DNA of 64,000 bases from a virus: the IMG/VR virus record IMGVR_UViG_3300023184_000046, positions 32,001 through 96,000 of that record. One strand, 5' to 3'. This document shows, piece by piece, positions 45,154 to 63,521 of this stretch. Made by a program: the position numbers and the translations under genes. Below the pieces are notes generated by a model. That model saw only the letters and a program-made list of their open reading frames with translations, was not told the DNA's origin and did no database searches. Numbering within the stretch: position 1 is the stretch's first letter; each line of letters begins with the position of its first letter.

Positions 45154-45699
45154 CTAACAACGCCAATCATCTGAATACATCCACTTGAAACCACCTGATG
45201 TATTAAAACTCTTTCTTCCACTGCAAACACTTGATATATTTGCCTTTCTACATCCACTTTCTTTTTCAGCAACCTCTAATGACTCGTACTCTTCTATAAA
45301 CTCACCTTCTATACTTAATTTTACCACTCCTTTCTTACCACTCCTGAATCCTAATTCTTCTATCGCATGCCTTGTGTTCATGTAATTACTACACCATTCT
45401 AAATTCCCAATCTCGTTATCACCTTTTATACCATTCTTGTGATTTACTTGATCATATCCATTTGGATTAGGTATAAATGCAATTGCCACCAAACGATGAA
45501 CCTTCATCTTATGCGACTTGCCTAACTTATGCAGATAACAATACTGGTAACCTTTATCTGTATAGTGTTGAATACAGATCTTCTCTCTGTCTTTAAAATA
45601 CAACTTTTTTAACCTGCCGAAATTACTAATTAAATATGATTCAAATCCAGCCACTTCTCTCCACTCTTCGTTTAAATCTTTAATTTCTAATTTACTCAT
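45154..45699 (-). CDS. NUMOD4/HNH/NUMOD1 homing endonuclease
   Basis: EEWREVAGFESYLISNFGR; VHRLVAIAFIPNP...VNHKNGIKGDN..NLEWC; SLEVAEK...NISSVC..GGFKW; AGGAG SD before 45699. Confidence 0.9.
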   Translation of the reverse strand: MSKLEIKDLNEEWREVAGFESYLISNFGRLKKLYFKDREKICIQHYTDKGYQYCYLHKLGKSHKMKVHRLVAIAFIPNPNGYDQVNHKNGIKGDNEIGNLEWCSNYMNTRHAIEELGFRSGKKGVVKLSIEGEFIEEYESLEVAEKESGCRKANISSVCSGRKSFNTSGGFKWMYSDDWRC

Positions 45700-46030
45700 A
45701 TTTAACTCCTTTCTTTTAATATACTGAATTTTATTAAACCTTGTCAAACCTGAAAAAATATCACCGCCCTTTTTTTTACCAAACCTCTTTTTATAAATAC
45801 TACTTTTTTGTACACTAATATACATTTACTTAGTATCCAATTTTGCAACAACACAGCACACACCAAAAAATATAGTTCATTAAACAAACAAAGGGAGTGA
45901 TGATACCACAGGCTATATAGGGAGTACCCAACTCTCTAATGTTTTTTATTTTTAATTTATTAATTTTTAATTTTGCAACAATTATTTTTTATGATAATGA
46001 AATATATTCATACTACTTGTGTAGCTAGTT

Positions 46031-46134
46031 CCCAGTCCCAGTCCCAGTCCCAGTCCCAGTCCCAGTCCCAGTCCCAGTCCCAGTCCCAGTCCCAGTCCCA
46101 GTCCCAGTCCCAGTCCCAGTCCCAGTCCCAGTCC
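46031..46134. repeat. (CCCAGT)x17 perfect hexamer tandem repeat
   Basis: Directly visible; abuts the first AAGTACATCCGTGCAATA motif. Confidence 0.95.
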
Positions 46135-46168
46135 TAAGTACATCCGTGCAATACGAAACACTAGGCAC

Positions 46169-46204
46169 AAAAAAATACCCTACACCAAACTGGTGTAGGG
46201 TATT
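46169..46204 (-). terminator. Intrinsic terminator
   Basis: AATACCCTACACCA/TGGTGTAGGGTATT stem with T-run on minus strand. Confidence 0.85.
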
Positions 46205-46220
46205 AAGTTTATTACTTTGC

Positions 46221-46589
46221 TCATGTATGTCTCTCAAAGATTTCGCTTAACTCTTTAAGGAAGGTTGACCTTATGTTCTTGATAAACTCACTAAACTGTT
46301 CGGTAATATCCTGACTATTACCTTCATCATCAGGTATACCACAGAACAAAACATCACCTACAAGGTAGTCATTAAACTTAGTTAGCTTATTAGCACGATG
46401 CCAAACAGCCGTAGCAATTATATTATCACGCAAGCCTTTAAGCTTGCCTTCTTCATTAACAAACCCAGAACCAATATTGCCAGCTTCGATGGCTTCTATG
46501 TAGCCACCAACTGCTCTTTGAATTTCTTTCAGGCCTTCAGCCTGAACTTCAATGATTTCGCCAGAAGTCTTTACAATAACTGCCTTCAT
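46221..46589 (-). CDS. DUF3846-like protein
   Basis: LKEIQRAVGGYIE, VNEEGKLKGL..N..AT, DYLVGDVLF.G; start MKAVIVK with GGAG SD. Confidence 0.7.
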   Translation of the reverse strand: MKAVIVKTSGEIIEVQAEGLKEIQRAVGGYIEAIEAGNIGSGFVNEEGKLKGLRDNIIATAVWHRANKLTKFNDYLVGDVLFCGIPDDEGNSQDITEQFSEFIKNIRSTFLKELSEIFERHT

Positions 46590-46603
46590 GATTATCTCCA
46601 ACA

Positions 46604-46657
46604 TAGCTGGAATTGGTTGTTTATAAATGATTAAGTCACCAGCAATGACTAACATCA
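46604..46657 (-). ncRNA. Conserved 5'-leader hairpin/pseudoknot, copy 1
   Basis: AGTCA-TTGCTGG-TGACT hairpin; loop complementary to downstream CCAGC just before SD. Confidence 0.6.
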
Positions 46658-46687
46658 TCAGCAATGTTTATAACTTGCTTACTGTAC

Positions 46688-46716
46688 TATCGGTTTAAAA
46701 GCTGTGCCATTTTCAA
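46688..46716 (-). promoter_or_regulatory. TTGAAA-N17-CCGATA promoter, copy 1
   Basis: One of nine identically spaced copies upstream of minus-strand genes. Confidence 0.75.
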
Positions 46717-46745
46717 CTATTTAAAAAATATTTTATAAGATTGTT

Positions 46746-46934
46746 CTTAAGTACAACTGTGCAATAGGAAATCTTAAGTACAACTGTGCAATAGGAAATC
46801 TTAAGTACAACTGTGCAATAGGAAATCTTAAGTACAACTGTGCAATAGGAAATCTTAAGTACAACTGTGCAATGGGAAATCTTAAGTACATCTGTGCAAT
46901 AGGAAATCTTAAGTACATCTGTGCAATGGGAAAC
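46746..46934 (+). repeat. 7 x 27-bp tandem repeat CTTAAGTACA(A/T)CTGTGCAAT(A/G)GGAAAT
   Basis: Directly visible; contains the 18-bp core. Confidence 0.95.
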
Positions 46935-46943
46935 ACTAGGCAC

Positions 46944-46983
46944 AAAAAAATACCCTACACCATTTTGTTTGGTGTAGGGTATT
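46944..46983 (-). terminator. Intrinsic terminator
   Basis: Near-identical to 46169-46204. Confidence 0.85.
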
Positions 46984-47000
46984 AAGTTTACTTACATGGT

Positions 47001-47456
47001 TTACATGGCCTTGGATGATTCGATCTCGGCAAAGCTGGCCTGCACCTTTACAGTTTGCTTGCCTGATACCGATACCTTTGGTATCGTTTCGGCAAAGACT
47101 TCTTTGATTGTATCCATCTTTGCTTTCATTTTCTTTGACAGGATTACCAGCTTACCATCTTCTTTTTTCTCAAGCATTGCAGCCATGGCCTTCGCAGCCT
47201 TCTCGACTGCTTCATCACCATAGCTACCAAACTCGGCAGCAAATGCAGCAGCAAACTCATAGATGCTTACAGAGACAGTACCAGTCCTCTCGTAATCTTC
47301 GCCTTTATTGATTGAACCAGAAACATCAATGTTCTGGATATCACCAGAAATATTATCAAGGATTGTTATCGAGCAATCAATTTTATGATTACCCGTGTTA
47401 AGCTTTTCTTCTTTTTCTCCAAATACCTTCTGGACTGCGATAAAAATCTCATTCAT
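47001..47456 (-). CDS. Hypothetical protein, paralog of 62793-63248
   Basis: Shared KVFGE, NKGEDYER..TVSV..YEF, LSKK, VFAET.PK.SVSGK. Confidence 0.75.
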   Translation of the reverse strand: MNEIFIAVQKVFGEKEEKLNTGNHKIDCSITILDNISGDIQNIDVSGSINKGEDYERTGTVSVSIYEFAAAFAAEFGSYGDEAVEKAAKAMAAMLEKKEDGKLVILSKKMKAKMDTIKEVFAETIPKVSVSGKQTVKVQASFAEIESSKAM

Positions 47457-47472
47457 AGCACTATCTCCATCA

Positions 47473-47525
47473 TAGCTGGCATTGATTGTTTATAAGTGAT
47501 TGTCACCAGCAATAACGAATCACTT
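47473..47525 (-). ncRNA. Conserved 5'-leader hairpin/pseudoknot, copy 2
   Basis: AAGTGATT(C)GTTA-TTGCTGG-TGACAATCACTT...CCAGCTA..GGAG. Confidence 0.6.
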
Positions 47526-47541
47526 TGTTTGTCTAATGTAT

Positions 47542-47570
47542 TATCGGTTTAAAAGCTGTGCCATTTTCAT
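47542..47570 (-). promoter_or_regulatory. ATGAAA-N17-CCGATA promoter, copy 2
   Basis: Spacer identical to copy 1. Confidence 0.7.
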
Positions 47571-47600
47571 CTATTTAGAAAATATTTTATAATTTATGAT

Positions 47601-47852
47601 TCTTAAGTACATCTGTGCAATAGGAAATAAGTTTATGATAATAATTCTTAAGTACATCCGTCCAATGGGAAATAAGTTTATGGTTTATGATTCTTAAGTA
47701 CATCCGTCCAATGGGAAATAAGCTTATGGTTTATGATTCTTAAGTACATCTGTGCAATAGGAAATCTTACGGCAATGGTAAATCCTAAGTACATCTGTGC
47801 AATAGGAAATCTTACGGCAATGGTAAATCCTAAGTACATCTGTGCAATAGGG
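47601..47852 (+). repeat. 6 copies of the AAGTACATC(C/T)GT(G/C)CAAT motif, ~45-46 bp period
   Basis: Directly visible. Confidence 0.9.
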
Positions 47853-47949
47853 ATTGCATTACATTGTGTTTTAAAGCGTTTGTTCTTTACTTGACCTAAG
47901 ACTCATCTTAGCAAGAGATCGTTGAAAATAGACGCATTGTGTGGGTGCT

Positions 47950-48031
47950 GGTGATGATATGCGGGTGATGATATGCGGGTGATGATATGCGGGTGATGAT
48001 ATGCGGGTGATGATATGCTGGTGATGATATG
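47950..48031 (+). repeat. 6 x 14-bp GGTGATGATATGC(G/T) array
   Basis: Directly visible; abuts terminator. Confidence 0.9.
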
Positions 48032-48037
48032 GAAACG

Positions 48038-48076
48038 AAAAAATCCCCTACACCATTTTTAGTGGTGTAGGGGATT
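48038..48076 (-). terminator. Intrinsic terminator
   Basis: AATCCCCTACACCA/TGGTGTAGGGGATT stem plus T-run. Confidence 0.85.
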
Positions 48077-48084
48077 AGGTTTAT

Positions 48085-48282
48085 TTACTTGGCCAGCTTT
48101 TTTAATTCTACTGGGTCAAGGTGGTTCTTTTCAACATGATCGACCAGCTTAACTTTAATTTCCTTCAACTTCTCTTTGAGAACTTCGATTGTTTTCTCGA
48201 TTGCATCTTTTTTGGAATCTAATGCAATCCATTCAGCAACAGGAAAGCAATCACCAGCATAGTTATAATTTTCAGCTTCCAT
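48085..48282 (-). CDS. Small hypothetical protein
   Basis: Start MEAENY with GAGGA SD. Confidence 0.6.
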   Translation of the reverse strand: MEAENYNYAGDCFPVAEWIALDSKKDAIEKTIEVLKEKLKEIKVKLVDHVEKNHLDPVELKKLAK

Positions 48283-48296
48283 AACATTAATCCTCG

Positions 48297-48350
48297 TAGC
48301 TGGAAGTAAATGGTTGTAAATGATTGTCACCAGCAATAACGAATCATTTA
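48297..48350 (-). ncRNA. Conserved 5'-leader hairpin/pseudoknot, copy 3
   Basis: TAAATGATT(C)GTTA-TTGCTGG-TGACAATCATTTA...CCAGCTA-C-GAGGA. Confidence 0.6.
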
Positions 48351-48364
48351 TGTAGGTTTAATAA

Positions 48365-48397
48365 TCCCCTTGCACCATGTTAATTGGTGCAAGGGGA
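48365..48397 (-). terminator. Strong hairpin after vWA gene (terminator or processing site)
   Basis: TCCCCTTGCACCA/TGGTGCAAGGGGA 13-bp stem; weak U-tract. Confidence 0.6.
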
Positions 48398-48404
48398 GAT
48401 AAGT

Positions 48405-50252
48405 TTATTTAGTAACTAACTTTTTGATGGCCCTGCAAAGTAGTGGCAGGGATGACATCGTATCAGCAAGCGTAACCCAGTTACCTTGGCCGTAAAGCTT
48501 GTCGCCTATTCGATGATCGAAAGCATTAGCAATCCCGATTCCGAATACTCCAACTCCCGATTTTCTAGCTTCAACTACACATTTGTTTGTGTGATTTACT
48601 CCTAGACTTCCATCGTAACAGTTAGCACTTGGTTGACCATCTGAAATAACAAACAGATGATGAATCGAGTTAGCATTTGCTGGATTGGTTTCTATCATTT
48701 TTTGAGATATAAACCTCACGGCAAATCCATCTGCATTGTTTGCAATTCCATCTGCAACTGCCAAGTTTTTAGTGTTGTCGAAACCTTTCCCAAAATATGG
48801 GAACATTTGGACAACATTGGCAACTCCACCAGAATCAGCGGTATGACCATAAACAACTAAGTCTATGCCCCTAATGCCTTTTATGGCTTCGACAAGCTGC
48901 AAGCAAACTGTTCTTGCATCTGTAATGTTTCGGCCCATCATACTGCCTGACTGGTCAAGCAATAATCCAATGGTGTACTGTTTTCCTTTAGGCACTTCCT
49001 TTGTCTCAAATAGGCGAATCTTTTCACCCATTTGAAATTTATGAAGTCCATTAACATCGAGATCGCCAAGCGTTTTACCAAAGTCTGGCCTTGCAAGCTT
49101 TACCGATTTAAACGCAAAGCTATTTTTAATAGCTTCGATTGCTCTGCGATTTTTTATTAGAAAATCTCGGTAAGCATCTTTGGTTTTTGGCTTCATCCTA
49201 GCGTTTGTAACTTGATACTTGACCTTGGCTGGATCACCTTCCTTGGCTTCTGGTTCTTCGAGTTTTACTTCTTCTGGTTTTTCATCACCAGAGGAAAGCT
49301 TGTTTAACTCTGCAAGAACTGGTGAATGTTCTTCTGGTACTGGCGAATCTAAGAGTCTTTCAGCAGGTGTTTTAAATGGCGAACCATGGCCCTTGCACTT
49401 TTTATCTTTTCCTTCACCTTCACCATCGCCACCTTCAGCTTCTCCTTCACCATCTTCACCTTCACCACCTTCACCACCTTCACCATCGCCATCTTCACCT
49501 TCACCATCTTCTGGTGGTGCTGGTGGTGCTGGTGGTGCTGGTGGTTTTTCTTCTTCTTCCAATTCGATTATTTTGTCCTTAATCGTCTTGTAGATTCGTT
49601 CTGCGACTTCCAGTCTTTCATATCCCTCTGGACTATGATTGACTTTGAAATCCTCGGAAACATGGTCAAGAATCTCTTTAAATTCTTCCCAATGTTCTTG
49701 GATACCAGTATCACCAAAGTCTACTTCTGATTGTGGCAATGTCCACTTTTCCATGATTGCGTTTACTTTTTCTGTCATGCTAGTTTTCTGGTTCACTTGT
49801 TTTTCGCATGAAATAGATTCTTGAAAAGCTTCAACTTCTGGTGTGAAACCAGTCCACTTTTCTTTGACTTTATCAAAGCTATTTTTGGTCAAGATTCCGT
49901 TGAAAATACTAATGCCTGTTTTACTTACCATGTCACCAGTTTGACTGGTAAATCCTGTTACTGACATTTTCTCTTTGCTGGTCTTGCTTCTTAGCATTTC
50001 TTGCTTCGCAAGTATTCTACCCTTTTCTTCAAGCATGGCCTGTTCTACTTGTTCGACCTTTTTGCCATCAGCACTAATAAATTTACCAGCATCAATCACG
50101 ATACTGTTTGAAGCACTTGCACCAGTAGCTTGTGTGAACCGAACTTCAATATTCTTTTCTGATCCATCTGAACTGTTCTGGATTAAATTGGCGGTGTTTG
50201 CCAATTCCCTAAGAATATCCATGCCAACATCTTTGTTATTACTCATGTTCAA
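48405..50252 (-). CDS. vWA-domain protein (CobT/NorD-like MoxR partner), copy 1
   Basis: MIDAS LLDQSGSM, YGHT, NNADG, VISDGQP; acidic Gly/Glu linker. Confidence 0.85.
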   Translation of the reverse strand: MNMSNNKDVGMDILRELANTANLIQNSSDGSEKNIEVRFTQATGASASNSIVIDAGKFISADGKKVEQVEQAMLEEKGRILAKQEMLRSKTSKEKMSVTGFTSQTGDMVSKTGISIFNGILTKNSFDKVKEKWTGFTPEVEAFQESISCEKQVNQKTSMTEKVNAIMEKWTLPQSEVDFGDTGIQEHWEEFKEILDHVSEDFKVNHSPEGYERLEVAERIYKTIKDKIIELEEEEKPPAPPAPPAPPEDGEGEDGDGEGGEGGEGEDGEGEAEGGDGEGEGKDKKCKGHGSPFKTPAERLLDSPVPEEHSPVLAELNKLSSGDEKPEEVKLEEPEAKEGDPAKVKYQVTNARMKPKTKDAYRDFLIKNRRAIEAIKNSFAFKSVKLARPDFGKTLGDLDVNGLHKFQMGEKIRLFETKEVPKGKQYTIGLLLDQSGSMMGRNITDARTVCLQLVEAIKGIRGIDLVVYGHTADSGGVANVVQMFPYFGKGFDNTKNLAVADGIANNADGFAVRFISQKMIETNPANANSIHHLFVISDGQPSANCYDGSLGVNHTNKCVVEARKSGVGVFGIGIANAFDHRIGDKLYGQGNWVTLADTMSSLPLLCRAIKKLVTK

Positions 50253-50365: not shown

Positions 50366-51610
50366 CTAGGCTAATCCCGCACCCTTCAACAACTCCCGAA
50401 TTTTAGCCCTTTCGGATTCCTTAGAACCATCATCTGTAAAATGGTTCACGATAGAAAATTCCAAACTGCTATTCCCGATTACTGCAAGCTTGGAAGCTGC
50501 GTTTTCCAGCAATCTGGTACTTAAGCTTTTGGTGTAAACTTCGCAAGCTTTATGTTTTGCACGAACTGTTCGGGCAATCATTGCAAGCTTATCTGACCTT
50601 GCAGCATCTAGGCCATGCTTACGCTGCAATAGCAAGCTTTCATCCTTTTCATCGAGATAATCGACTTCGATTATATCGGAGAACCGATCACTAATTGCAC
50701 CATCCATTTGATCTGTTCCCGTGAATTGCGATCCTTCATTCATCGTAGCAAAGAATGTAACTCCCGCTGCAACTGTGATAAACTCGCCAGTATCATCGAG
50801 AAAAGTTTGCCCCCTTGAATCTGCCATGGGAAGAAAAGTATTCATTGCCATTGGACTAAGGCGGTTGATTTCATCCAAGATGACTACCATCCTTGGCACT
50901 CTAATAGCGTTTACAAATTGGGAATAAATCCATCGTATTCCCTTGTCATCCGCTGTTTTGAAACCAAACAAATCTTTGGCTTCACGCAAGGTAGGGCAAT
51001 CAATTATTACTGCTGGTCTTTTTGCCTTGGCAGCAAATTGTAAGGCCAGCATTGTTTTCCCGCATCCAGCAGGGCCGACCAAACGAATCTTTGCACTAGG
51101 TTTACCCGCTGCGAAATCCCTGCGAGATAACTTTTCAATCCCATTCAAATATTCCTTCAACTTTGGGTTGAAGGTAAAGTGGGGATCAATTGTTGGTATT
51201 GGAACTGGTGCAACTACTGGTGCAACCTTGGGAACAACTGGTGCTGGTGCTGGTTTAACTGCAACTGGTGCTGATTCCAATTCAGCATCTTTTGGCACTT
51301 CATAACCATCATCTAGGCCATCATCGTATTCACTCATACTCTCAATATCCTCCATAAAGTTTTCTTCTTCAACTGGTGCAACTGGAACAACAACTACTGG
51401 TTTAACTGGTGCTACTGGTGTTTCACCAGCTTTAACTGCTTCCTTATACTGATGTCTTACTGCTGACCACTCAGCCTTTGTGATTTCGATACAAGCATCT
51501 TGGCAAGTCTTATGACAAGCTTCAAAGCTTGCCAAACCCTTTGAGTTTACCATTACTTCCCTAAGTAATTTGTACTTTTCGCTTCTTGCTTCACGGCTGA
51601 AAAAACTCAT
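50366..51610 (-). CDS. MoxR/CbbQ/NirQ-type AAA+ ATPase, copy 1
   Basis: Walker A GPAGCGKT, Walker B ILDEINR, ATMN, DRF, STRLL; start MSFFSRE with AGGAG SD. Confidence 0.9.
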   Translation of the reverse strand: MSFFSREARSEKYKLLREVMVNSKGLASFEACHKTCQDACIEITKAEWSAVRHQYKEAVKAGETPVAPVKPVVVVPVAPVEEENFMEDIESMSEYDDGLDDGYEVPKDAELESAPVAVKPAPAPVVPKVAPVVAPVPIPTIDPHFTFNPKLKEYLNGIEKLSRRDFAAGKPSAKIRLVGPAGCGKTMLALQFAAKAKRPAVIIDCPTLREAKDLFGFKTADDKGIRWIYSQFVNAIRVPRMVVILDEINRLSPMAMNTFLPMADSRGQTFLDDTGEFITVAAGVTFFATMNEGSQFTGTDQMDGAISDRFSDIIEVDYLDEKDESLLLQRKHGLDAARSDKLAMIARTVRAKHKACEVYTKSLSTRLLENAASKLAVIGNSSLEFSIVNHFTDDGSKESERAKIRELLKGAGLA

Positions 51611-51689
51611 AATCAAACTCCTAAATTTAAAAAAAACAACAAAAAACCACATGGCAACAAAACCCTGTGGTGTGATAAGCTTATTGGTA

Positions 51690-51718
51690 TATCGGTTTGA
51701 AACTCGATCCATTTTCAA
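51690..51718 (-). promoter_or_regulatory. TTGAAA-N17-CCGATA promoter, copy 3
   Basis: Upstream of MoxR copy 1. Confidence 0.75.
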
Positions 51719-52108: not shown

Positions 52109-52720
52109 TATTGTACGGATGTACTTTAGGATAAGCTTATTTCCTATTGTGCGGATGTACTTTAGGATAAGCTTATTTCCTATTGTGCGGATGTACTTGC
52201 AGGCGGATGTAATTATAAAAAAATAAGTTTACAAGTACATCCGTATAATAAGTTTATAAGTACATCCGTGCAATAAGTTTATAAGTACATCCGTGCAATA
52301 AGTTATTAAGTTGAATTGTTTTAAGTACATCCGTGCAATAAGGAAAAGCTTATTTTGTTTTATTTCGTATTGCACGGATGTACTTAATAAAGTTTAAGGT
52401 CACAAATTGTGACCTTAAGTACATCCGTCCAATGGGAAATAAGTTTATAGTTTATAATTCTTAAGTACATCCGTGCAATGGGACACAATTCTGGGACATA
52501 AATTATTTTGTAAGTACATCTGTGCAATAGGAAATAAGTTTATAGTTTATGATTCTTAAGTACATCCGTGCAATCGGAAATCTTAAGTACATCTGTGCAA
52601 TAGGAAATAAGTTTATGGTTTATGATTCTTAAGTACATCCGTGCAATGTGAAATAAGTTTATATTTATAATTCTTAAGTACATCCGTGCAATGTGAAATA
52701 AGTTTATGATAATAAGTTTA
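52109..52720. repeat. ~14 copies of AAGTACATCCGTGCAATA-like motif in both orientations
   Basis: Reverse copies ~52109, 52145, 52181, 52368; forward ~52233-52340 and ~52417-52695. Confidence 0.9.
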
Positions 52721-52899: not shown

Positions 52900-53342
52900 G
52901 TTACGCCTTAACCTGCTGGGCGTTAACCTGCTGTGCCTGCTACGCCTTAACCTGCTGGGCGTTGAACCTACCTGAACCTGCTGTGCCTTAACCTGCTGGC
53001 TGGGCGTTGAACCTGCTGGGCGTTGAACCTGCTGTGCCTGCTACGCCTTAACCTGCTACGCCTTAACCTGCTGGGCGTTGAACCTGCTGGCGTTGAACCT
53101 GCTGTGCCTGCTACGCCTTAACCTGCTGGCGTTGAACCTGCTGTGCCTGCTACGCCTTAACCTGCTACGCCTTAACCTGCTGGGCGTTGAACCTGCTGTG
53201 TCTGCTACGCCTTAACCTGCTACGCCTTAACCTGCTACGCCTTAACCTGCTGGGCGTTGAACCTGCTGGCGTTGAACCTGCCTGAACCTGCTACGCCTGA
53301 ACCTGCTGGCGTTGAACCTACCTGAACCTGCTATGCCTGAAC
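52900..53342 (+). repeat. GC-rich mosaic repeat of AACCTGCT + (GGGCGTTG | ACGCCTT | GTGCCTGCT)
   Basis: Directly visible; no long ORF. Confidence 0.9.
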
Positions 53343-53376: not shown

Positions 53377-53458
53377 TGCTGATATGGAATTGCTGATATG
53401 TGATGCTGATATGGAAGATGCTGATATGCGGTTGATGATATGCAAGATGCTGATATGT
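53377..53458 (+). repeat. 6 x TG(C/A)TGATATG array
   Basis: Copies at ~53377, 53391, 53404, 53419, 53433, 53448. Confidence 0.85.
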
Positions 53459-53511: not shown

Positions 53512-55314
53512 TCAAGATGTAATTAGTTTTTTGATCTCTCGGCAAAGCAAAGGTAAAGAACTAATTGTATCCTTTAGGATTACATAATTTCCCGAACCGT
53601 AAAGAGAAGTGCCAACGGAATTGTCAAAGGCGTTTTGAATGCCAATTCCAAAAACATTAATCTTTCTTTCGGTAGACTGTTTCACGCATTTAGCCGTGTG
53701 TCTAATACCATTGTTTCCCGCATAGCAGATTGCTGCTGGTTGACCATCTGAGATGACAAACAGGTGGTGTACGCTGTTTGCATTTGCAGGATTGGTTTCC
53801 AACATTCTCTCTGATATAAATCGGACAGCAAATCCATCTGCATTGTTTGACAATGCTTGTGCATTTGCTAGTCCAATGGTATTATCAGCACCCTTCTGAT
53901 AATAAGGAATCATCTCTAGTGTGTTACCTTCGCCACGATCTGCGGAGTGTCCATAAACTACTAGGTCGATTCCTTTTATGCTTTTTATAGCTTCCACTAA
54001 AGCAAGGCAAACTGTAGAAGCATCTTTTATCTTACTTCCACACATACTGCCTGATTGGTCTAGTAAAATTCCAATGGTATATTTCTTACCCTTGGGGATT
54101 TCCTTTTCTTCAAACAGGCGAATCTTTTCACCCATATGAAATTTGTGTAAACCGTTGATATCAAGATCACCGACTGTCTTGCCAAAATTTGGTCTAGACA
54201 AGTGAACCGATTTAAAAGCAAACGATTGTTTTATAGCTTCAATCATTCTGCGATTGGTAATCATAAAACTACGATAAGTTTCCTTGTCTCTATTTGTTGG
54301 TTTAAACTTATGAACCCTTACTTTTATTTTTGCAGGGTCATAAGCTTCAGCGGATGAGGGAATATCTTTTGGAGTATCGTTGTTTGCCTTTAGATCCTGA
54401 AAACCTTGTGGGCTTGCAGAATTATCAGGTCGTTCAATAATTCTATCTCCAATGTTTTTAGAATCTCTTAAAGGCTTTTTACCTTCAGGATTTTCACCTT
54501 CACCTTCACCTTCACCTTCACCTTCACCTTCACCTTCACCTTCACCTTCACCTTCACCTTCACCTTCAGGTGCTTCAGGCGTTTCATCTTCACCTTCTGG
54601 CGTTTCAGGTGTTTCAGGCGTTTCATCTTCTACTTCTGTAATCCTAGAAGCGATTTCATCGTAGATTCTTTTTGAGATTTTTAACCTCTCGTTTTTTGCC
54701 GTTGGCTTTTTAAATTCTTCAGCTACATGATCGAGAATCTTTTCAAAATCTTCAAAGTGTTCGCCAAGGCCAGTATCACCAAAATCAATGTTAGAATTTG
54801 GTAGTGTCCATTTTTCGATTATGGATTCTACCTTTTCTTCCATTCTAGATTCTTTGGTAACTGAAATATCCTGACCAATAGAATCTTTAAAAGATTCAAT
54901 CTCAGGTGCAAAGCCTGACCATTTTTCTTTAACACTATCAATTGCATTTTTAGCAGATACACCATTAAAGATTGTTTTTATCTCAGGTGTAGCTAACTCA
55001 GTAGATTCTTCTGAAAATCCACTAAGCGTCATTCGTTCATGTTGCGTAGTGGTTTTGAGTAATTCTTGTCTAGTCAAGATTCTACCCTTTTCCTCAGATA
55101 AAGCTTTATCATTAAGAACCAAGCTTCCATCTTCTGCTGTAAACTTAGATAGATCAGCAACTAAATCTGTACGATCTGTTGTAGATTTAAATCCAACCGA
55201 CAAGGTTTTCTCTTTATCACCCTCGCAACCATTTGATAAAAGGTTTGCGGTTTTGGTCAATTCTGCCAAAATTTCTTGTCCGATTACGATGCTTTCTTTA
55301 GTCTTAGTATTCAT
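53512..55314 (-). CDS. vWA-domain protein (CobT/NorD-like), copy 2
   Basis: LLDQSGSM, YGHS, NNADG, VISDGQP; (EG)n linker; start MNTKTK with GAGG SD. Confidence 0.85.
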   Translation of the reverse strand: MNTKTKESIVIGQEILAELTKTANLLSNGCEGDKEKTLSVGFKSTTDRTDLVADLSKFTAEDGSLVLNDKALSEEKGRILTRQELLKTTTQHERMTLSGFSEESTELATPEIKTIFNGVSAKNAIDSVKEKWSGFAPEIESFKDSIGQDISVTKESRMEEKVESIIEKWTLPNSNIDFGDTGLGEHFEDFEKILDHVAEEFKKPTAKNERLKISKRIYDEIASRITEVEDETPETPETPEGEDETPEAPEGEGEGEGEGEGEGEGEGEGEGEGENPEGKKPLRDSKNIGDRIIERPDNSASPQGFQDLKANNDTPKDIPSSAEAYDPAKIKVRVHKFKPTNRDKETYRSFMITNRRMIEAIKQSFAFKSVHLSRPNFGKTVGDLDINGLHKFHMGEKIRLFEEKEIPKGKKYTIGILLDQSGSMCGSKIKDASTVCLALVEAIKSIKGIDLVVYGHSADRGEGNTLEMIPYYQKGADNTIGLANAQALSNNADGFAVRFISERMLETNPANANSVHHLFVISDGQPAAICYAGNNGIRHTAKCVKQSTERKINVFGIGIQNAFDNSVGTSLYGSGNYVILKDTISSLPLLCREIKKLITS

Positions 55315-55378
55315 ATTATCCTCATTTGAAAAAAGTAAAAAGGTAAAGCCCCACCACATTGGCAGGGCTTTGAAACAA

Positions 55379-56569
55379 CTACTCTGAAAGTCCTGAACCC
55401 TTAAGCAATTCCCGAATTTTTGATCTTTCCGAATCTTTGCTACCATCGTCAACAAAATGGCTAACAAGAGAATACTCAAGAGAACAAGCACCAATTTTAG
55501 CAAGCTTTTTAGCTGCGTTTTCCAGCAATCTGGTGCTTATGCTTTTAGTATAAACTTCACTAGCCATAAATTTAGCCCTGACCGTTTTTGCAACCAATGC
55601 AAGCTTATCCGATCTAATTTTATCAAGACCATGTTTTCTTTGCAGGAGCAAACTTTCATCAGGTTCTGATAAATAATTGATAGGAATCAAATCACAAAAT
55701 CTATCGCATAAAGCGGAGTCCATTTGATCCGTTCCAGTAAACTGCGATCCTTCATTGCAGGTACTGAAAATCGTCACGCCTGCTGCAACCTTTATTTCCT
55801 CTTTGCTTTCGTCAAGATATGTTTCACCCCTAGAATCTAGCAAAGGCAATAAAGTATTCATGGTCATAGGGGATAATCTGTTTATTTCATCCATTACGAT
55901 TACCATGCGGGGTATTCGTATTGCATTGACGAATAAACTATTAACCCATTTAAGACCATCTTTATCTACTGTTTTATTACCGAATAAACTTAGCCCTTCT
56001 CTAAGTGTCATGCAGTCGATTATGACACATGGGCGTTTGGTTTTAGCTGCAAACTGAATTGCCATGCTGGTTTTACCACAACCTTGATGGCCAACCAACC
56101 TGATAGCTGCACTAGGTTTGCCTGCTGCAAAGTCATCTCTCGACATTTGTTCAATGCCATTGAGATAATTTTTAAGATTGGTATCAAAGGTAAAATGAGG
56201 GTCAATCTGGTGCATAAATTTAGCTTTAACCCACTCAGGGTATTCTGCTTTTTTAGGTGCAGGTGCAGGAACAAATTCTTCCATTTCAGGTTCATCCATA
56301 GGTTCAGGTTCTTCCATTACAGGAGCAGGAGCAGGTTCTTCCATTACAGGTATTGGTGCAGGTGCAGGTATTGGTGTTTCACCTGCTGCGATAGCATTTT
56401 TATACTGGTGTTTGATAGCACTCCAGTCTGCCTTAGATACTACAATGCCAACTGCTGCCAATGATTTATGGCAATGTTCAAAAGATGCTTCACCTTTAGT
56501 ATTAACGAATATTTCCCTAAGTAAACGATACTTAGTAGTCCTAGCTTCTCTGCTGAAAAAATTACTCAT
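55379..56569 (-). CDS. MoxR/CbbQ/NirQ-type AAA+ ATPase, copy 2
   Basis: GHQGCGKT, VMDEINR, STCN, DRF, STRLL; start MSNFFSRE. Confidence 0.9.
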   Translation of the reverse strand: MSNFFSREARTTKYRLLREIFVNTKGEASFEHCHKSLAAVGIVVSKADWSAIKHQYKNAIAAGETPIPAPAPIPVMEEPAPAPVMEEPEPMDEPEMEEFVPAPAPKKAEYPEWVKAKFMHQIDPHFTFDTNLKNYLNGIEQMSRDDFAAGKPSAAIRLVGHQGCGKTSMAIQFAAKTKRPCVIIDCMTLREGLSLFGNKTVDKDGLKWVNSLFVNAIRIPRMVIVMDEINRLSPMTMNTLLPLLDSRGETYLDESKEEIKVAAGVTIFSTCNEGSQFTGTDQMDSALCDRFCDLIPINYLSEPDESLLLQRKHGLDKIRSDKLALVAKTVRAKFMASEVYTKSISTRLLENAAKKLAKIGACSLEYSLVSHFVDDGSKDSERSKIRELLKGSGLSE

Positions 56570-56600
56570 CGTTTCTAATCCTTCTAAGACATGAGACATG

Positions 56601-56711
56601 ACTATCAATTAATCTGCCGTTTCTAATCGGCATGAAAACTAACTGATATTAAAATCTATACTATCAATTAATCTGTCATTTGCAATCGGCATGAAAACTA
56701 ATTGATATTAA
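56601..56711. repeat. Tandem pair of ~52-bp hairpin-forming repeats in MoxR2 leader
   Basis: ACTATCAATTAATCTG....CGGCATGAAAACTAA(C/T)TGATATTAA at 56601 and 56660. Confidence 0.8.
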
Positions 56712-56713
56712 CC

Positions 56714-56799: not shown

Positions 56800-57090
56800 C
56801 CTATTGCACGGATGTACTTGATAATCATAAACTATAAGTTTATTTCCTATTGCACGGATGTACTTGATAATCATAAACCATAAGTTTATTTCCTATTGTG
56901 CGGATGTACTTAAAATTTCCCGTTGTCCCATTGCCCGTTGTCCCATTGCACGGATGTACTTAATATTTAAATAAATAAATTCAGTTAAAGTTATAAGTAC
57001 ATCCGTGCAGTAAATTTATAAGTACATCCGTGCAATAAAATTATAAGTACATCCGTGCAATAAGTTTATAAACTTATAAGTTTATAAGTT
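56800..57090. repeat. 7 copies of the 18-bp motif (4 reverse then 3 forward) plus TAAGTTTA/TAAACTTA palindromes
   Basis: Directly visible. Confidence 0.9.
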
Positions 57091-58151: not shown

Positions 58152-58253
58152 TGCTGATATGCGGTGATGATATGTGGTGATGATATGTAGCTGCTGATAT
58201 GGAAGGTGCTGATATGGAAGGTTTTTTAATTTTTAAAAGGTTTAATGATATGG
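58152..58253 (+). repeat. 5-6 x TG(C/A)TGATATG array
   Basis: Copies at ~58152, 58165, 58178, 58192, 58207 and partial ~58246. Confidence 0.85.
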
Positions 58254-60146: not shown

Positions 60147-60530
60147 TTAGAATTTAAAAAAGAAAGGTTTATCTGGTGGTTGTTTGTGATAGTCTAAAAG
60201 AATAGTTAGACATTCACCAGTAGCAAGTTCTATTGCTTTTTTACATTCTATACCTTTGAAGTTATCAGTTAAGTATCTTACTATATCTGTTTGGTTATTT
60301 TTAACCGCTTCCTTCAAAGCTGGTTCTAGTTGTTTTGCATCAAAGCTACCAACTTCGACTAATGATTTTAATATAAACAATCTTCCGTAGTGTGCTGCAA
60401 ACTTTATACAATTGGTAAAATTATTTGCACCAAAGTCTAATGATTCTTCTACTTTGTTTATATTATCTTCTAATACAGCGTTGAACATTTGTTCATTAAG
60501 TTGTTTAATTGTAATGCGTTCTTCGTCCAT
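60147..60530 (-). CDS. Ankyrin-repeat-like protein
   Basis: FAAHYGRLFILKSLVE.G, ALKEAVKNNQTDIVRYL; ends FFKF. Confidence 0.7.
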   Translation of the reverse strand: MDEERITIKQLNEQMFNAVLEDNINKVEESLDFGANNFTNCIKFAAHYGRLFILKSLVEVGSFDAKQLEPALKEAVKNNQTDIVRYLTDNFKGIECKKAIELATGECLTILLDYHKQPPDKPFFFKF

Positions 60531-63428: not shown

Positions 63429-63521
63429 AAGTACATCCGTGCAGTAAAGTTATAAGTACATCCGTACAATAAAGTTATAAGTACATCCGTGTAATAAGTT
63501 TATAAGTACATCCGTGCAAAA
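63429..63521 (+). repeat. 4 x 25-bp repeat with AAGTACATCCGT core
   Basis: Copies at ~63429, 63454, 63479, 63504. Confidence 0.9.

Follow-up and report, generated by a model that had tools for sequence, protein, structure and literature searches.

A hairpin-and-box leader module before unrelated small genes in an uncultured freshwater giant phage

We describe a leader of about 55 nucleotides (nt) that occurs three times on the minus strand of a 64,000-nt window (bases 32001-96000 of the 120,029-bp IMG/VR virus record IMGVR_UViG_3300023184_000046; coordinates below are those of the window), each time directly before the Shine-Dalgarno (SD) sequence of a different gene. Each copy consists of a hairpin with the loop UUGCUGG, a linker and the box CCAGCUA. 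The window has a G+C content of 30%, and CheckV estimates the completeness of the record at 24%, which makes it a fragment of a very large phage genome; its source is an uncultured freshwater giant phage. The leader is a new, lineage-restricted motif, and on the comparative evidence given below its hairpin is real as an RNA structure. Our best explanation, held tentatively and with a chance that we put slightly short of even, is that the leader is a portable post-transcriptional module within cassettes that resemble the PeSL cassettes of T4-type phages, and that it tunes translation or mRNA stability, possibly via a trans-acting factor.

A shared leader before unrelated genes

An earlier note on this DNA, made from the letters alone, had described three minus-strand leaders with an invariant loop, a linker and a box before the SD of unrelated genes, and every detail was found on reading the sequence. 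Leader copy 1 (48297..48350) precedes the gene of a 65-amino-acid (aa) ORFan (48085-48282). Its hairpin (48350-48317) has an outer stem of 9 bp (48350-48342/48325-48317), a bulged C (48341) and an inner stem of 4 bp (48340-48337/48329-48326) below the loop UUGCUGG (48336-48330); a linker of 13 nt (48316-48304) leads to CCAGCUA (48303-48297), and the SD GAGGA (48295-48291) follows 1 nt past the box, with the ATG at 48282 (14 nt from box to AUG). Leader copy 2 (47473..47525), before the gene of a 151-aa ORFan (47001-47456), comprises a hairpin (47525-47494) with an outer stem of 8 bp (47525-47518/47501-47494), a bulged C (47517) and an inner stem (47516-47513/47505-47502), then the loop (47512-47506), a linker of 14 nt (47493-47480) and CCAGCUA (47479-47473); its SD GGAG (47468-47465) lies 4 nt past the box and the ATG is at 47456 (16 nt from box to AUG). 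Leader copy 3 (46604..46659) stands before the gene of a 122-aa DUF3846 protein (46221-46589), and its hairpin (46659-46626) has an outer stem of 6 bp (46659-46654/46631-46626), a small internal loop and an inner stem of 5 bp, AGUCA/UGACU (46650-46646/46638-46634); the loop (46645-46639) is followed by a linker of 15 nt (46625-46611), CCAGCUA (46610-46604), the SD GGAG (46599-46596) 4 nt past the box and the ATG at 46589 (14 nt from box to AUG). The two stems are separated by one bulged C in copies 1 and 2 and by the small internal loop in copy 3, where the outer stem is offset by one base. A covariance model built from the leaders scores the three copies at 98, 90.2 and 73.8 bits, respectively. 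The earlier note quoted the stem differences correctly: the inner stem changes from U-G to C-G, and the outer stem from A-U to G-C, where copy 2 has a G-C at the position of an A-U in copy 1.

The pattern TTGCTGG-N15-45-CCAGCTA has exactly three matches in the 64 kb, all on the minus strand with a spacing of N26 or N28, where 0.03 were expected, and none of 100 dinucleotide shuffles reached three. The genes behind the leaders are unrelated. One was confirmed as DUF3846 (Pfam, E=1.4e-16), as had been proposed, while the 65-aa and 151-aa proteins fell into no family in the Pfam search.

Relatives were sought among metagenomes with the pattern of a promoter-like box, described below, in order to avoid biasing the leader set. 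Nine contigs were returned, of which seven look related and two look like chance, and four of the nine (L178, L179, L183 and L185) carry the leader. Together with the window this gives 13 copies, 10 of them distinct, and the covariance model (R1) scores all 13 at 74-98 bits. They serve five gene families: the 65-aa, 151-aa and DUF3846 proteins, an 81-aa basic protein and a 58-aa hydrophobic protein. BLASTP found no similarity between the five families at E<=1e-3, and no Pfam family was found for the 81-aa and 58-aa proteins. Orthologues share conserved N-termini that begin at the annotated AUG, and the leader is non-coding, as its linkers differ by insertions and deletions that are not multiples of three. 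On the same ground we rejected a leader peptide or an N-terminal extension; only copy 1, moreover, has the loop TTG in the reading frame of the AUG. The open reading frame (ORF) finder does start two ORFs at a TTG in these leaders, one in the loop of copy 1 and the other in leader 3, at TTGCTGA just upstream of its hairpin.

Covariation and folding of the hairpin

The ten distinct copies served as the comparison set and were aligned both by MAFFT, blind to structure (A1), and by fitting to the model (A2), with identical counts. The hairpin has 13 pairs and a one-base bulge four pairs below the 7-nt loop UUGCUGG, and 92.9% of its cells are paired; for the whole structure the value is 94.9%, compared with 18.7-53.5% when the 3′ partners were slid by 1-3 columns. 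One pair changed on both sides (A-U in four copies, G-C in four and G-U in two), as did the pair that closes the loop (A-U in nine, G-C in one), and a third variable pair is U-G in eight copies and C-G in two. The covariation score of 0.123, against 0.087-0.088 in shuffled alignments, was reached by 0/500 and 2/500 shuffles. Once the relatives are added, pairing is thus kept by compensatory and G-U changes, in line with the stem covariation that had been proposed from the window. Probably about two of the compensatory events in the hairpin are independent. The bulge occurs in every copy, and its column holds C in five copies and A in the other five; in copy 3 that A pairs within the small internal loop. 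The hairpin was part of the minimum-energy fold in 7/7 leaders and then in 10/10. Every copy lies on the sense strand, just 5′ of the SD, and this position together with the kept G-U pairs points to RNA rather than DNA.

Complementarity of loop and box

The seven letters of the loop and the seven of the box are invariant in all ten distinct copies, and partial leader variants at loose contig ends in other sequencing runs also keep both. The linker is poor in G and unstructured, with a free length of 9-16 nt and a variable sequence. The gap from loop to box ranges over 22-28 nt, compared with 13-16 nt from box to AUG, and the box ends 1-4 nt before the SD. Such a variable tether with an anchor fixed at the ribosome-binding site (RBS) fits what pairing of loop and box predicts, unlike a rigid DNA-bound dimer.

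GCUGG of the loop and CCAGC of the box can form five Watson-Crick pairs in 10/10 copies. Two random 7-mers share at least five complementary bases with a chance of 0.8-1.6%, and the complementarity is therefore unlikely to be accidental. In the putative H-type layout, loop 1 would be UU (2 nt), loop 2 would have 0 nt, and loop 3 would be the linker of 9-16 nt, running across 13 bp. By the geometric rules for H-type pseudoknots, a layout with loops of 2, 0 and 9-16 nt and a stem of 13 bp would be feasible.

Repeated cassettes around the leader

The earlier note had missed that the leader is part of larger repeated cassettes with a terminator, tandem repeats, a promoter-like box, the leader and a gene. 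Hairpins with T runs that resemble intrinsic terminators at the sequence level lie 3′ of the 65-aa gene (48042..48076), the 151-aa gene (46949..46983) and the DUF3846 gene (46174..46204), all on the minus strand, as are the elements that follow. A conserved box of the form AATAGaTGAAAATGG-N7-TTTAAACCGATA lies 16 nt upstream of hairpin 2 (47542..47575), and the same box lies 28 nt upstream of hairpin 3 (46688..46720). Its consensus can also be given as AATAGTTGAAAATGG-N7-TTYAAACCGATA, with the core form TGAAAATGG-N7-TTYAAACCGATA of about 28 nt preceded by an A-rich tract; it contains TTGAAA and a conserved downstream element, CCGATA. The box is found upstream of five genes, three of which have no leader (~52048-52021, 51717-51690 and 56741-56714), and it is probably a phage-specific promoter. 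Among the six box-proximal copies of the leader, the hairpin starts 7 nt past the box in four and 16-28 nt past it in two. Copy 1 has no such box upstream. It is placed past the stop codon of a VWA protein gene and a GC-rich hairpin, with 15 A/U-rich bases between, and would therefore be internal to an operon transcript; leaders of the copy 1 type begin 10-15 nt past the GC-rich 3′ hairpin.

Between the terminator and the promoter-like box of the third cassette lies a tandem array with a period of 27 nt (46745..46945) and a unit that contains TTGCACAG(A/T)TGTACTTA; an array with a period of 45/46 nt and the same TTGCACAG(A/T)TGTACTTA core is found upstream of the promoter-like box of the second (47578..47864). 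The 17-nt core TTGCACRGATGTACTTA has 29 copies, all but two on the minus strand (27), which fall into five clusters between genes (46745-46945, 47578-47864, 52257-52691, 57019-57060 and 63503-63519). These arrays look like binding sites for a DNA-binding regulator.

Over the promoter and linker blocks copies 2 and 3 are alike at 90-91% identity (families D6 and D7). The relative L185 has five cassettes compared with three in the window, and the gene content of the cassettes differs between the window and L185 and L178. Two DNA sequencing runs have contigs in which 168, 320 or 381 other letters stand between the same terminator and the same leader, with the proviso that joints at a likeness below 95 can arise from repeats. 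The joints and the differing gene content are consistent with shuffling of cassettes.

Gene row and neighbouring elements

The leaders lie in a minus-strand row of genes, listed here from a gene for a MoxR-type AAA ATPase (50366-51718 as an ORF), whose real start is the ATG at 51609 and not the TTG at 51718 given by the ORF finder, followed by the gene of a VWA/CobT-like protein (48405-50252), which lies 5′ of leader copy 1. Directly 3′ of the cassette row is a gene resembling HNH/NUMOD4 homing endonucleases (45154-45825, minus); at this position L185 has instead a fifth leader-bearing cassette, with the 58-aa gene. The pair of MoxR-type ATPase and VWA/CobT-like protein occurs twice in tandem as paralogues (50366-51718 with 48405-50252, and 55379-56608 with 53512-55503, minus strand), and a separate promoter-like box and a distinct kind of structured leader belong to each pair. 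A terminator-like hairpin with a long T run (51640-51672, minus) separates the SD of the first MoxR-type gene from its promoter-like box; it looks like a leader attenuator and is conserved in the contigs L177, L178 and L183. Before the second MoxR-type gene there is a different structured leader (56620-56712, minus), a duplicated nested hairpin with an outer stem of 8 bp and an inner stem of 5 bp. L177 has a single copy of it, in which both sides are altered in one outer and one inner pair, suggesting compensatory change.

Further repeats were noted in the region. Tandem repeats of 13-15 nt with the core CATATCAKCA directly follow terminator hairpins, always on the gene strand (47952-48031, 53377-53457 and 58152-58216), and another such array lies just past the end of the window (64583-64706; 96583-96706 of the record). 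Arrays resembling microsatellites are found at 46030-46140 (6-nt unit) and 52900-53330 (a unit of about 15 nt).

Searches for further copies and relatives

Neither the loop-and-box pattern nor the covariance model found a further good copy in the whole 120-kb record. The earlier note had not recognised the leader as SAM-II, preQ1, fluoride, guanidine-III or a known ribozyme, and the Rfam check now bears this out: the covariance models of Rfam 15 gave no match at the gathering threshold anywhere in the window. At E<=10, 17 weak matches fell within 46200-48500, none at its own threshold. Two long ones overlap leaders 1 and 3, namely U4 with 17.3 bits (gathering threshold 46) and, on the opposite strand, RsaOG with 20.3 bits (gathering threshold 50); the remaining 15 lie on terminator hairpins, coding DNA or promoter-like boxes.

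A 14-base pattern of loop and box matched at least 118 stretches of IMG/VR, mostly in apparent coding DNA, and these were rejected as chance; all 117 in which the match was found again (L088 had none) had 0-3 pairs flanking the loop. With a stricter pattern (loop plus TGAC), 55 stretches were returned, and of the 54 open to checking none formed a hairpin. IMG/VR had no match to the promoter-box pattern or to a stem pattern free of the loop. In a scan of genome contigs the lone match, in a high-GC contig of a metagenome-assembled genome, was taken as chance and was not scored by the covariance model. A match of 24 bits in two contigs (L180:7319-7407 and L183:12387-12475), with 16 bits at 60287-60372 (minus) in the window, was set aside as chance or as a relic or decayed copy; the hit has a hairpin loop with GUUGG and a CCAGC about 20 nt later, falls within an ORF of 127 aa and is not followed by a start codon.

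At the protein level, IMG/VR yielded no relatives of the 151-aa, DUF3846 or VWA protein, and in a tblastn search of 50,697 deposited phage genomes all matches of the MoxR ATPase were at <=32% identity and the 151-aa protein had none. Among metatranscriptomes one contig of 402 nt, less than 90% alike, covers 47001-47264 in the 151-aa gene only, and DNA can be present in such libraries. In the literature excerpts retrieved, DUF3846 turned up only in an unrelated mention, and the loop heptamer with the terms hairpin loop and phage turned up only in papers on animal viruses.

Discussion

In the account that we favour, the leader would be transcribed together with the gene behind it. GCUGG of the loop and CCAGC of the box would then pair to give an H-type pseudoknot, a compact fold directly 5′ of the RBS that leaves the RBS itself uncovered. 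The module would act after transcription, by shielding the 5′ end, or a processed 5′ end, from the entry of endonucleases or exonucleases, and by insulating or tuning the loading of ribosomes independently of the upstream sequence. It would thereby give cassette genes that are otherwise unrelated a shared mode of expression, both next to a promoter and inside an operon. If the conserved box is a promoter, the hairpin of four of the six box-proximal copies would be at or near the 5′ end of the transcript; the operon-internal copies come after a 3′ hairpin and a short A/U-rich spacer, where processing would make the leader a new 5′ end. The distances of 7 nt from the box and of 10-15 nt from the 3′ hairpin fit such a protector of 5′ ends. 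The 14 invariant letters of loop and box exceed what five base pairs need, which makes a trans-acting reader possible, and loop and box may, from their conservation, be read by such a factor as well. The earlier note had proposed a new cis-regulatory RNA, and what stands of this is a strand-specific leader element that acts at the RNA level and lies outside Rfam. Its readings as a translational operator and as a nuclease-blocking leader are both viable; the riboswitch-like one, discussed below, is not likely.

Several observations weigh against this account. The hairpin rests on about two independent compensatory events in only ten closely related sequences, so that the support from covariation is modest, and the z-scores for folding of whole leaders are weak (-2.1 to +0.2). 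The promoter role of the box comes from inference, and a scan for the sigma-70 consensus does not call it. The five putative pseudoknot pairs never vary (5/5), and covariation therefore cannot speak for or against the pseudoknot; the invariance is in part built in, as the pattern of the first collection required both motifs, although the covariance-model search gave no variant copies either. In ViennaRNA folds the loop is closed by two U-G pairs into a triloop that competes with the pseudoknot, and freeing loop and box from nested alternatives costs 3.7-9.3 kcal/mol (mean 6.0), compared with -6.8 for the 5-bp duplex including initiation. When the box was modelled as engaged, the RBS became easier to open in six of ten leaders and not in the other four. 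This inconsistency led us to reject a switch with an RBS that is trapped by the box in one of two alternating states, and since SD and AUG lie outside both helices the leader is not a sequestering switch. With complementarity and a feasible layout on one side and invariant pairs, break-even energies and weak z-scores on the other, we give the H-type pseudoknot that had been proposed from the window roughly an even chance; its complementarity is present in every copy.

The main rival is an operator without a pseudoknot, in which the bulged hairpin with its loop and the box would both be recognised by a single RNA-binding protein or other trans factor, which represses or activates the translation of small accessory genes together, as one regulon. 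Operators of phage coat proteins, RegA and gp43 follow the same logic of co-ordinate translational control. All 14 letters of loop and box are fixed, including the UU and UA that the five pairs do not need, while stems and linker drift; the bulge keeps its position four pairs below the loop with a variable identity (C in five, A in five), the leader is common to five unrelated genes and the distance from box to AUG is held fixed. All of this is what an operator would show, yet it leaves the complementarity of loop and box as a coincidence of 1-2%, and no candidate binder was identified within the 120 kb, 24% of the genome, in which ribosomal protein S21 and S1 domains were not found either. 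The phage does encode at least one RNA-binding translational regulator, a 56-aa protein of the CsrA family (106590-106736 of the record, minus strand, outside the window; L194:1495-1665; Pfam PF02599, 52.9 bits, above the cut-off). The canonical core motif of CsrA is GGA, which is absent from the loop and occurs in the SD of only 3/10 copies, and we rejected this homologue as the reader of the leader. We regard such an operator as unlikely, albeit a serious contender. A bolder version of our own account, decidedly unlikely as it stands, is that the leader is a phage-specific translation tag, a pseudoknot held at a constant distance from the start codon and read by a factor that the phage encodes or modifies, or by the ribosome itself, which would give swappable cassettes privileged or timed translation. 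If true, a modular signal of a post-transcriptional regulon would travel with the cassettes.

The leader might also belong mainly to a PeSL-like cassette for recombination and regulation, with its copies homogenised by recombination and serving as crossover points for small genes; the hairpin would then be at most a generic 5′ stabiliser and the match of loop and box without function. Promoter box, leader and terminator are indeed repeated around different genes, the blocks shared by copies 2 and 3 are nearly alike, and one leader of L185 (copy d) has its G-U where the 5′ half of one leader type meets the 3′ half of another, as a crossover in the loop predicts. The contig joints of the two DNA runs agree with this, with the reservation about repeats already made, as does the precedent of the PeSLs (PMC2839356, PMC4122927). 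Against it, conservation is patterned, with a loop and a box that are short and fixed and a linker that is constant in neither length nor sequence, and stem changes keep pairing, which drift plus gene conversion does not predict. Leaders of the copy 1 type have no promoter box, so that the leader is kept as a unit of its own, and the longest run common to all copies is under about 12 nt, short for homologous recombination. This makes the explanation rather improbable. A DNA-level operator, in which inverted repeats (the stem arms, or TTGCTGG and CCAGCTA) are bound as a duplex by a dimeric regulator downstream of the promoter, would account for the arms and for the place of copies 2 and 3 just downstream of the promoter-like box. 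It is very hard to reconcile with G-U positions that are kept in the stem (U-G in 8/10 at one pair) and would be asymmetric in DNA, with a spacing of loop and box half-sites that varies over 22-28 bp, with copy 1 types that lack the box, and with a sense-strand position at a fixed distance from the AUG in all copies; we consider it very improbable. Hardly probable at all is a small pseudoknot riboswitch for a metabolite, a reading that the earlier note had allowed for. In size and H-type topology beside the SD the leader resembles such classes, whereas no Rfam match reached its threshold even at E<=10, the SD is in neither helix, the lining of the pocket would have to come from a linker of variable sequence and length (9-16 nt), and the genes served are five unrelated families of small phage ORFans with no metabolic link.

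In giant phages, small genes without a known function number in the hundreds, and the organisation of their expression is poorly understood. If the module works as we propose, it would be a natural portable part for translation or stability, usable as an insulator in synthetic biology, and its presence would label those accessory genes of an uncultured phage lineage that are regulated together. With it, the concept of mobile regulatory cassettes known from the PeSLs would reach beyond transcription to post-transcriptional control. Confirmation of the pseudoknot or of a trans-acting reader would add a new class to the few known phage translational operators, and interest in the leader would rise considerably if a translation mechanism that depends on the pseudoknot or on a factor held.

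Comparison with known systems

The preQ1, SAM-II/V, fluoride and guanidine-III riboswitches share with the leader a similar size and a possible H-type fold beside the SD; here, in contrast, no covariance model matches, loop 3 is variable, the SD is free and the genes are not metabolic. The coat-protein operators of MS2 and PP7 are bulged hairpins that contain one gene's RBS or start codon. Common to them and to the leader is a lone base bulged out of the 5′ strand, a few pairs away from a loop whose sequence is specific. The leader, however, has its hairpin 35-45 nt upstream of the AUG, outside the RBS, and its binder is only putative. The 5′-terminal stabiliser hairpins of the E. coli ompA leader and of T7 late transcripts need no conserved loop and no complementary box downstream. 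They resemble the leader in being stable hairpins at or near the 5′ end of several transcripts with an open RBS after them, and differ from it in that here loop and box are conserved and 16-28 nt precede the hairpin in two of the six box-proximal copies.

In the mRNA leader of T4 gene 32, an H-type pseudoknot is followed by an unstructured stretch rich in A and U and by the RBS, and the translation of this single, autoregulated gene is controlled through the leader. Both are phage leaders in which an H-type pseudoknot, here a putative one, comes before an unstructured stretch and the RBS. In gene 32, however, the pseudoknot lies well upstream of the RBS, whereas the 3′ strand of the putative helix 2 in our leader abuts the SD, and the one autoregulated gene contrasts with at least five unrelated genes here.

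Closest to the cassettes as a whole are the PeSLs of T4-type phages, which unite a promoter and a terminator stem-loop, run up to an SD and a start codon, and mediate the shuffling of genes (PMC2839356, PMC4122927). Both systems are short, conserved composite intergenic motifs that flank unrelated small ORFans in a plastic region of the genome (three genes in the window and five families overall in our case); in both, a promoter (here a promoter-like box) is joined with a stem-loop, an SD and a start codon. Swapping of the enclosed genes goes with the PeSLs and may occur here. A stem-loop that would end upstream transcription is likewise found at each of the three cassettes, as a terminator-like hairpin with a T run. 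A PeSL has its terminator stem-loop in, or at, a sigma-70-like promoter; in our cassettes the terminator is a hairpin of its own, the box is not sigma-70-like by our scan and recombination is only hinted at, by the contig joints. There is no sequence similarity to the PeSLs described, and the cassettes of this phage add, as a transcribed element, a further hairpin whose invariant loop is matched by a complementary box next to the SD. This hairpin-plus-box leader is what the PeSLs do not have.

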